Assembly: GCA_041690595.1 (NCBI GenBank)
Contig: JAWLHB010000020.1
Location: 121,233 to 141,232 of the forward strand
DNA from: Lentisphaeria bacterium
GTDB taxonomy: Bacteria; Verrucomicrobiota; Lentisphaeria; JABSQK01; JAWLHB01
DNA: 20,000 nt
Direction of reading: 5' to 3'
In this document: in pieces, positions 18,624-20,000 of the stretch
Numbering within the stretch: position 1 is the stretch's first letter
Layout: each line of letters starts with the position of its first letter
Notes under the pieces: generated by a model
What the model saw: the letters and a program-made list of their open reading frames with translations, nothing else
The model's database searches: none
Told to the model about the DNA's origin: nothing
Made by a program: the position numbers and the translations under genes

Positions 18624-18898
18624 GATGGGCAGCGCCTCACGCGTTGGCTGGTTGATCAGTTGGTGGTACCCAGACTATACCCCACGACCAAGACCTTTTC
18701 CTGGGGGGAGGGATCGAGCCGTGTGCGTGCGGTCGGCTGCGCGGCAGAAGATCATGGTCTCGACCTTGACAAAAGGTGGCAGGGATGAGCATATTCTCTT
18801 CCATGGTCGAACAACCCAAGGTGGCCAGAGCGAAAAGTCAATTGGCCTCAGCGGCGATCGGAATCAGACTACACCTGAAATCTGGTGGTAGAATCGAG

Positions 18899-19441
18899 AT
18901 GAACGGTTTGTGTTATCCGTTATCTTTTAAGGCATTACGGTGCCATTATTTTATTTCCATGGTTCCATCTATTTCTGTTATTGCACTAGCTTTTCTTTGT
19001 CTATGCGGGTGCTCATGGACTGATAGAATGATGAAACTAGATAGGATGCTTGAGCGGACGCTAGATCCTTACGTTACTGCCTATATGGCGTCCAGTAGTT
19101 TGGATGACCGGATCAATATCCTGAACCATCTAATAGCGGATATGAATAACCTTCGCCTGAAGCTTAAAACAGACCGACAGCGCTACTTTGTCGACGACAC
19201 AATTGCTTTTTCGTACGCTCGCCTTTACTACATAAACGTGGATCTGCAAAGACCTCATGCAGCAGAGCAAGCCAGAGCCGAAGCAATCAAGCATCATCCC
19301 GACTGGCAGTTGCTACCAGATGACGAACGTGTGGTAAGGCTCGAAAGTCTTGTCGTATTCCTGCGCAAGCTTGACGCGAGGTATGGCGTGCCGGTGCCGC
19401 AGGCATCCCCCCAACAAAACAACCCTGCAATCCAGCAGTAA
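18899..19441 (+). CDS. Hypothetical lipoprotein, helical/TPR-like, low GC
   Basis: Hydrophobic stretch ending in a lipobox-like LCG-C. The start is uncertain (ATG 18899 or 18959; the GTG at 18776 is unlikely). AT-rich codon usage unlike neighbouring genes. Confidence 0.6.
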   Translation: MNGLCYPLSFKALRCHYFISMVPSISVIALAFLCLCGCSWTDRMMKLDRMLERTLDPYVTAYMASSSLDDRINILNHLIADMNNLRLKLKTDRQRYFVDDTIAFSYARLYYINVDLQRPHAAEQARAEAIKHHPDWQLLPDDERVVRLESLVVFLRKLDARYGVPVPQASPQQNNPAIQQ

Positions 19442-19671: not shown

Positions 19672-19700
19672 TTGACTTGGTGGATGGGATGGGCTACAGT
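19672..19700 (+). promoter_or_regulatory. Putative sigma70 promoter driving the structured RNA and the downstream ORF
   Basis: TTGACT (19672-19677), 17 bp, TACAGT (19695-19700). The predicted +1 at about 19705-19707 coincides with the start of the inverted-repeat arm. Confidence 0.65.
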
Positions 19701-19704
19701 TTTT

Positions 19705-19840
19705 ATGCCCGGTGACGGTGGTGCTTTAGATTGCGTGCGGCGTTGCGCCGTGCATGCTTATCTACCCAGATGAAGCTCAATTCATGAGCTTCGAGAGCTG
19801 ACGCCGATGTTGTGAAGTTAAGCGTCCGTCACCGGGCCAT
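19705..19840 (+). ncRNA. Putative structured RNA closed by terminal inverted repeats (retron msr-msd-like, or a structured 5' leader)
   Basis: Perfect 12-bp IR GCCCGGTGACGG (19707-19718) / CCGTCACCGGGC (19826-19837), extendable by two more pairs (AT/AT) with one bulge. Internal hairpins at 19727-19764 and GAAGCTCA/TGAGCTTC (19772-19792). Confidence 0.55.
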
Positions 19841-19857
19841 TCCAGAAGGTGAGTGCC

Positions 19858-20000
19858 ATGGGCTGGATCGGCAGACTGTTCGGGTTGGAAGTGTCGAGAC
19901 GTCGTAAGCGTCAAAAATACCCCATGTTGTTTTTGGGGCCAGACGCCTACGCGGCTTGGGCCTTGGCTTCGCGCTTTGCTTTCCAGACGTCGGGGAGGAA
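19858..20000 (+). CDS. N-terminus of an unidentified protein, truncated by the window edge (candidate reverse transcriptase or retron partner)
   Basis: SD-like GAAGGTGA upstream of ATG 19858. The frame is open to the end: MGWIGRLFGLEVSRRRKRQKYPMLFLGPDAYAAWALASRFAFQTSGR. Not in the supplied ORF track. Confidence 0.55.
   Translation, partial: MGWIGRLFGLEVSRRRKRQKYPMLFLGPDAYAAWALASRFAFQTSGR

Follow-up and report, generated by a model that had tools for sequence, protein, structure and literature searches.

A probably decayed retron in a Lentisphaeria genome, from a candidate new type with a putative SF2 helicase partner

At the end of the window, by which we mean the whole 20,000-nt stretch of Lentisphaeria DNA analysed here, a promoter is followed by a folded RNA with closing arms and an msr hairpin and by an adjoining reverse transcriptase (RT) gene, which is split by an insertion sequence (IS); in relatives, the gene order is ncRNA - RT - SF2 helicase. 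We interpret the window locus as the decayed representative of what may be a new retron type, with a type XIII-like msr, an RT clade of its own and an SF2 motor partner, and assign this reading a probability of about 0.7. The locus has the testable features of a retron, except that the RT is broken in this copy. The first-pass annotation of this DNA suggested a retron-type ncRNA, a reading supported by the presence of a retron RT behind the RNA and by the occurrence of the RNA pattern only in genomes that contain this RT subfamily.

The ncRNA and its conservation

The features of the locus are as follows:
19672..19700, + strand: sigma70-type promoter (-35 TTGACT at 19672-77, 17 nt, -10 TACAGT at 19695-19700)
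19707..19718, + strand: 5' arm of the closing inverted repeat, perfectly complementary to 19826-19837
19725..19730, + strand: invariant TTTAGA (11/11 aligned loci), in which G19729 is predicted to serve as the branching guanosine (2'-OH priming)
19733..19757, + strand: msr hairpin, the predicted RT recognition stem-loop, with the GCGGYGTTNCGCCG core
19764..19818, + strand: predicted msd template for a DNA product of ~55 nt, both ends putative
19772-19792, + strand: 8-bp msd hairpin, inside the predicted msd
near 19797-19804, + strand: degenerate small hairpin, inside the predicted msd
19826..19837, + strand: 3' arm of the closing inverted repeat, pairing with the 5' arm over 12 bp
19845..19853, + strand: purine run resembling a ribosome-binding site, by sequence
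19858..19903, + strand: 5' end of the retron RT gene (15 codons), which continues on contig C10 of the same genome (G000), L003:1288-2313, - strand
19896..19903, + strand: 8-bp IS target-site duplication, with the same 8 bp at the opposite IS end on C10
19904..20000, + strand: end of a multi-copy IS with a 23-bp terminal repeat, possibly IS66-like, transposase not assembled

The promoter TTGACT-N17-TACAGT lies where the first-pass annotation placed it, and a promoter scan returns 1 promoter-like site against 0.2 expected; a TAnnnT hexamer, a loose pattern, is present 3-9 nt 5' of the arm in 10 of the 11 loci compared (the window and ten relatives). The 12-bp closing stem is likewise exact, 19707-19718 being complementary to 19826-19837. 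Among inverted repeats of 12 bp whose spacer measures 80-150 nt, its arms are the only one in the window, and because the whole genome carries 97 comparable repeats (0.24 per 20 kb), the arms by themselves are moderately unusual, suggestive and not decisive. Folding of 19700-19860, a check proposed in the first-pass annotation, yields -64.3 kcal/mol (z = -3.81), with 0/200 shuffles equally stable, and another of its proposals, an Rfam scan of the ncRNA, matched no family. A chance origin of the RNA is ruled out by the retention of its layout in 10 other genomes; the folded RNA is genuine, and is very probably a retron msr-msd.

In the relatives, the 5' arm and TTTAGA precede a GCGGYGTTNCGCCG hairpin, which is followed by ACCC and a long hairpin that varies among loci; a small hairpin, GTAA and the 3' arm complete the layout. 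Perfect arms of 9-14 bp, differing in sequence, are present in 11/11 loci, and duplexes formed by a locus's own arms average -30.6 kcal/mol, against -18.7 kcal/mol for swapped arms, with the own partner being the best in 9/11; both loci for which it is not the best have near-identical relatives. The RNA pattern is found in 11 of 351 genomes of the class, precisely the genomes that contain the RT subfamily, and in 0 of the 340 others; because the pattern was built from these loci, only its absence in the 340 others constitutes a test, and a reversed-pattern control gave 2 matches. The ncRNA adjoins the RT in 10/11 genomes and is located on a separate contig in the remaining one (G143), and its presence in genus g80 is patchy (5/10 genomes). 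Stem conservation in homologous loci, as sought in the first-pass annotation, holds for the arms, msr and msd, the internal hairpins being 95.8% paired with a covariation score matched by 5/500 shuffles, whereas the two-sided covariation in these hairpins is weak (2 pairs; 91/500 shuffles as high). In four g80 loci (L106, L107, L108 and L116), the 3' arm is separated from the start of the RT gene by an additional 150-200 nt in which short palindromes occur.

TTTAGA is invariant in the 11 aligned loci, which were chosen with a pattern containing TTAGA, the longer motif having first been spotted in RT-anchored upstream DNA. The context of the priming G is given as usually TAGC, with the variant CAGA, in the available portions of Simon et al. 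(PMC6868368). Given the invariant TTTAGA and these published contexts, G19729 is the best branch candidate, and appears more likely to be the priming G than G19720/21, the positions favoured in the first-pass annotation; the latter lie in a linker that varies among the loci, with no conservation, and were rejected. The long imperfect hairpin of that annotation is retained as the core stem at 19733-19757, its TAGAT/ATCTA extension being no family feature, and the GACGC/GCGTC stem fails as a family feature in the aligned loci; the 8-bp hairpin at 19772-19792 was verified in the sequence, and the ribosome-binding site and start codon indeed lie outside the closing stem (purine run at 19845-19853, ATG at 19858).

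In the alignment, 99% of the msr hairpin cells are paired, and 4 pairs alternate between G-C and G-U, with 0 two-sided changes. The msr core is also present in 6/22 SWIM-bearing type XIII-like loci, some with TTAG 5' of the core, and one type XIII-like locus contains two near-identical copies of the msr hairpin region (L081:1520 and L081:3987).

The first-pass concern that the msd is too short for a retron is correct as to the length in the window, but a short msd is typical of the family, with a predicted 55-79 nt in 10/11 loci (L115 left out) and 64-79 nt in the relatives. A long msd hairpin is present in 11/11 loci, with only 8 bp in the window, and the msd DNA fold of the window is the weakest (-8.3 kcal/mol, versus -13 to -24 kcal/mol in the 10 relatives). 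Triloops account for 18/21 of the predicted msd loops, and when read on the DNA strand 17/18 of these are NNA and 12/18 are GNA. Triloops of the d(GNA) type are stable in DNA, and the bias, observed in sequences that are kin, fits selection on a putative DNA copy.

The RT family and the interrupted RT gene

The ORF at 19858, which the first-pass annotation wanted tested for an RT, is the start of a gene for a retron RT with NAAPH, YADD and VTG motifs, though this gene is split by the IS. The window ends with contig C20, and its final 97 bases recur at many contig ends. The insertion splits the RT gene at 19903/19904, and the IS end in the window pairs through its 8-bp flank with an end of contig C10, where a 342-aa RT piece containing all three motifs continues in the same frame beyond the IS end. 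Joined across the break, with X at the junction, the RT measures 355 aa. In the family model of 352 positions it spans positions 1-349, and the C10 piece by itself begins at position 19. The IS-free allele is present in a near strain, on the basis of one 151-nt record (run X1, depth 2), which matches 19816-19904 and then the C10 sequence, with 2 differences in 30.

The 23-bp terminal repeat occurs in 27 copies (11 of one type, 16 of the other), all within ~150 nt of contig ends, and 9/11 left-type IS ends pair with exactly one right-type end via an identical 8-bp flank. With their GTAA-starting terminal repeats and 8-bp duplication, the IS ends presumably resemble those of the IS66 family; a search of the assembly for the IS66 transposase (PF03050) did not find it, the IS body being unassembled. 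One IS breaks the assembly in many places, and the 8-bp duplications, which join nine contig ends uniquely, could scaffold G000 and expose other interrupted genes. A literature search for IS-broken retrons found nothing relevant.

The best PADLOC model for the RT is RT_XIII (E 1e-87, 293 bits), followed by a model at 275 bits. A protein search recovers a tight group of 40 RTs of ~350 aa, with a median length of 349 and an aligned identity to the query of 45-61%, some of which have a source label, for example Lentisphaerae. Among the 351 class genomes, 35 match the family alignment at E <= 1e-60 and 11, including G000 itself, score E <= 8e-109, the next best being 4e-75; phylum samples (401 genomes) contain no additional genome with the RT subfamily, and a scan of genome contigs with a single RT query gave one distant locus. 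YADD is present in 40/41 family members, NAxxH in 16/41 (with the His in 41/41) and VTG in 16/41, being replaced by [VIA]LG in 22/41. In a quick tree of 139 RTs (midpoint root, built without published reference sequences), the 41 members form one side of a support-100 branch, apart from 19 SWIM-linked rows, and the window RT nests inside the helicase-linked RT clade. Most family RTs (window:19858-19902, P0003-P0042) begin with an amphipathic-looking MG(L/F/I)(L/F)xxLFG followed by basic residues, a stretch which we take to resemble membrane-targeting helices and which may tether the complex to the membrane.

Other RTs were seen alongside this family. Contig C8 of G000 contains a second RT (486-aa frame, RVT_1 E 1e-35), with C8:40037-40729 and C8:126338-127453 corresponding to the RT and a stand-alone, weak SWIM_XIII match. 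In the same class, a second clade of RTs (~290 aa; L121, L123, L127 and L133) has as flanking genes a Prok-E2_D-like one (~280 aa) and one of ~105 aa, without PADLOC matches, and is possibly another unclassified retron arrangement.

The probable SF2 helicase partner and probable decay of the window copy

ORF clustering at 15 loci identifies a ~910-aa protein encoded directly 3' of the RT as the only neighbour family common across genera, the next most widespread families being present in 3-4/15 loci. This helicase gene follows the RT in 10/10 other RT-subfamily genomes from 4 families, with a spacing of -4 to 278 nt (<=37 nt in 7/10; -4, 0, 2 and 6 nt in four loci). Helicase matches occur in 19/351 class genomes, 8 at 23-29% identity, with no RT in their fetched flanks, and 11 at an identity of at least 54%, of which 10 are RT genomes. 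In the eleventh, G149 (84% complete), whose helicase gene starts only 146 nt into a contig, searches recovered neither this RT subfamily nor the RNA. RT and helicase distances correlate (Mantel r 0.73, 0/10000 permutations, 15 pairs matched by the equal length of their contigs, which include some of the 10 relative genomes), showing joint inheritance, not interaction; because the genomes are kin, neither the 10/10 linkage nor the Mantel result reflects independent events. Beside other RTs, a neighbour cluster of ~900-aa proteins proved to consist of alpha-galactosidases.

The protein contains ResIII/DEAD domains, with helicase motifs retained in 29-31/31 sequences, and its structure model (pLDDT 88.5) predicts an SF2 core like that of XPB, Hef, FANCM and RIG-I. 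The best structural matches of the model are XPB (5tnu, Z 17.8, rmsd 19.8 over 365) and yeast TFIIH (5oqj, Z 17.4, rmsd 3.6 over 368), and FANCM also matches (9el5, Z 16.6, rmsd 3.8 over 376). The C-terminal module (~220 aa), folded alone, has a pLDDT of 64 and a best Z of 6.7, to common ferredoxin-like arrangements only. The resemblance to XPB/Rad25, Hef/FANCM and RIG-I-like helicases lies in the predicted SF2 core; sequence identity to them is only 12-23%, far under the NCBIfam cut-offs, and the retron-linked protein differs in its helical inserts, its ~220-aa C-terminal module and its encoding in a retron operon. No nuclease domain was identified in the helicase, PADLOC defence models gave no strong match, all matches in a comparison with Atlas were under 0.85, and viral contigs yielded only distant helicases (best E 7e-7).

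Together, the 31 near helicases make up a support-100 clade inside a wider family, which includes members without an RT (G356 at 37% identity, and two plasmid records among housekeeping genes); phylum samples (401 genomes) added only RT-free, more distant helicases. Because wider family members exist without any RT, the helicase is not toxic by nature. By eye, the flanks of the relatives look like housekeeping genes, not defence islands. We regard the helicase as probably a functional third part of the retron family.

The helicase was not found in G000 with protein and 76-row alignment queries, which gave only generic SF2 matches (best E 8e-6), in an assembly that is 97% complete and without repeats, so that the gene is no more than 'not found'; an ABC transporter gene lies directly after the RT. 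Given the position of the window RT among helicase-linked RTs, loss is the more economical interpretation. In G139 (L141:1-2565), the helicase is broken near residue 280 by ~100 extra bases with stops, beside an RT and an ncRNA that are both intact. Should RT-msDNA hold a harmful partner in check, that partner must be lost first, and G000 and G139 fit this order, although two cases lend it weak support. In our view the unit in G000 is very probably dead, with the helicase having been lost first, the msd eroding and the RT then having been hit by the IS.

In G143, the RT and helicase lie together at L136:7608-11695 and an intact ncRNA lies elsewhere (L149:1386-1548, - strand), adjoining the gene that flanks the ncRNA in genus relatives, which suggests that the retron ncRNA acts in trans, provided that the assembly is no chimera. 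A sequencing-run search listed no holder of the RNA.

Upstream of the retron in the window, the ORF at 18899-19441 was rejected as an effector, since searches of Pfam, NCBIfam and PADLOC returned nothing and none of the relatives has a homologue next to its locus. This ORF (+ strand) has a low GC content (47%) and a lipoprotein-like N-terminus and lies directly upstream of the retron promoter, and contigs C6, C33 and C9 carry copies, at 71-82%, of parts of the region (18733-18833 and 19171-19273).

Proposed mode of action, alternatives and known systems

Following known retron chemistry, one transcript would carry both the RNA and the RT, and the RT would bind the msr hairpin and prime at the 2'-OH of G19729, copying back from ~19818 to ~19764 to form a branched DNA of ~55 nt. 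The DNA product of the relatives would be 64-79 nt, with a long and a short hairpin mostly GNA-capped in the DNA strand. By analogy with characterised retrons, priming at the G of TTTAGA (G19729) and formation of a short branched DNA are very highly probable for intact copies. In retrons generally, RT-msDNA restrains a harmful partner (available portions of PMC12548924 and PMC8632793). Here, RT-msDNA would bind and restrain an ATP-driven DNA translocase, which would be freed or activated when the msDNA is perturbed by a phage protein. Any harm would then stem from ATP turnover or from protein displacement on DNA, as the helicase has no identified nuclease domain. Such toxin-antitoxin-like defence via a restrained motor is the most likely mode, at slightly less than even odds. 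We lean modestly towards a new retron type whose membrane-tipped RT and compact msDNA of two hairpins together control a recruited XPB-like SF2 DNA motor that has no recognisable nuclease or other toxin domain, with an ncRNA able to act in trans (G143).

The same three parts could instead form a unit in which the helicase is a helper or client, unwinding the RNA:DNA hybrid, recycling the RT or loading on the msDNA, in housekeeping or DNA repair. This would suit a protein recognisable only by its XPB/Hef/FANCM/RIG-I-like SF2 core, with stand-alone homologues amid housekeeping genes and no strong PADLOC match, and some retrons are possibly domesticated (Mestre et al., PMC7736814, available portions). 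The patchy presence within genus g80 (5/10), as for accessory conflict systems, and the loss of the helicase first in both decayed cases make the helper role rather unlikely. It is further disfavoured in that, to our knowledge, characterised retrons produce msDNA without a dedicated helicase. Still less probable is a stand-alone retron with the helicase as an unrelated, co-inherited neighbour: msr-msd-RT cassettes without a partner are known (PMC7736814, available portions), the genomes here are related, and the window locus, lacking an adjacent accessory gene, resembles the stand-alone retrons of the Ec107-like branch of clade 2 and of clade 11. Yet the lack of a partner in the window looks secondary, since 10/10 relatives have the helicase, and the RT-helicase pair persists while other flanks change between genera, is tightly spaced in four loci, has moved jointly in G143 and has matching RT and helicase clades.

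Type XIII retrons belong to RT clade 10, include Mx162, Mx65, Sa163 and Ne144, and have SWIM and HEAT/ARM partners (Mestre et al. 2020, PMC7736814, available portions). With RT_XIII as its best RT model and an msr core common to 6/22 SWIM-bearing loci, the window locus could be taken as an ordinary type XIII retron with SWIM/HEAT effectors elsewhere in the genome, for which the weak SWIM_XIII match on C8 (E 3e-22) would be a candidate; this match is, however, partial, the search was also positive in 2/14 control genomes, and true partners score E 1e-148 or better. Neither clustering nor reading of the ORF lists turned up a SWIM/HEAT gene near the window locus or its 10 relatives, in a procedure that detected such genes beside 22 more distant RTs. 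The partner here is an SF2 helicase, in place of SWIM plus HEAT/ARM/WGR, and the RTs of the family, ~350 aa long against a 469-position model, lack the long N-terminus, often have [VIA]LG for VTG, form a clade separate from the SWIM-linked RTs in the quick tree and are accompanied by a short two-hairpin msd. An ordinary type XIII retron is very improbable, and because the defining SWIM/HEAT partners are missing, the locus is not to be filed as type XIII. Least probable, at a few chances in a hundred, is the alternative raised in the first-pass annotation, a cis-regulatory leader or a separate sRNA with no role in reverse transcription; the retron reading is drawn from sequence, and the G143 RNA precedes a different gene, but the RNA occurs only in genomes with this RT, has a retron layout and carries a loop bias that suits the DNA strand.

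Among described systems, the nearest arrangement is a type XI-like lineage (TXI_noncan_h) in the SPIRE survey (PMC13712802), in the available portions of which a DnaB_C helicase-domain neighbour is proposed as an accessory module; the likeness is a helicase-type gene directly beside a retron RT, whereas that domain is DnaB-type and the RT type XI-like, and the present protein is a ~910-aa SF2 ResIII/XPB-like helicase linked to another RT clade. Table S1 of the same survey, as available, includes two Lentisphaerae RTs with a ResIII neighbour (rows 730 and 731), assigned only to type III-A5 at low confidence, and ResIII is not mentioned in its available text. The word helicase is absent from the available main text of PMC7736814, whose supplement, outside this comparison, may list a helicase cluster, and no SF2 helicase partner is named in the available portions of 10.1101/2024.07.21.604473, PMC12548924 and PMC8632793. 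A literature search found nothing on a retron-SF2 pairing, subscription papers being mostly outside its coverage. Within these available portions, an SF2 helicase partner was found neither in the 13-type classification (PMC7736814) nor in the 2026 metagenome survey (PMC13712802).

Pipelines miss the retron in the window because a collapsed IS splits its RT over two contigs, and this copy illustrates how such a retron unit decays. Being short and having its own promoter, the msd could serve as a compact basis for retron editing tools, and the retron linkage offers a testable context for a wider, unstudied family of ~910-aa helicases. Retron types are defined by their partner proteins, and with a conserved operon of ncRNA, RT and SF2 helicase the classification would gain a type whose output is a motor, not a nuclease or nucleotide-depleting enzyme. 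If the proposed reading is true, these bacteria would possess an immune or DNA-surveillance device based on a motor, not on an enzyme toxin.
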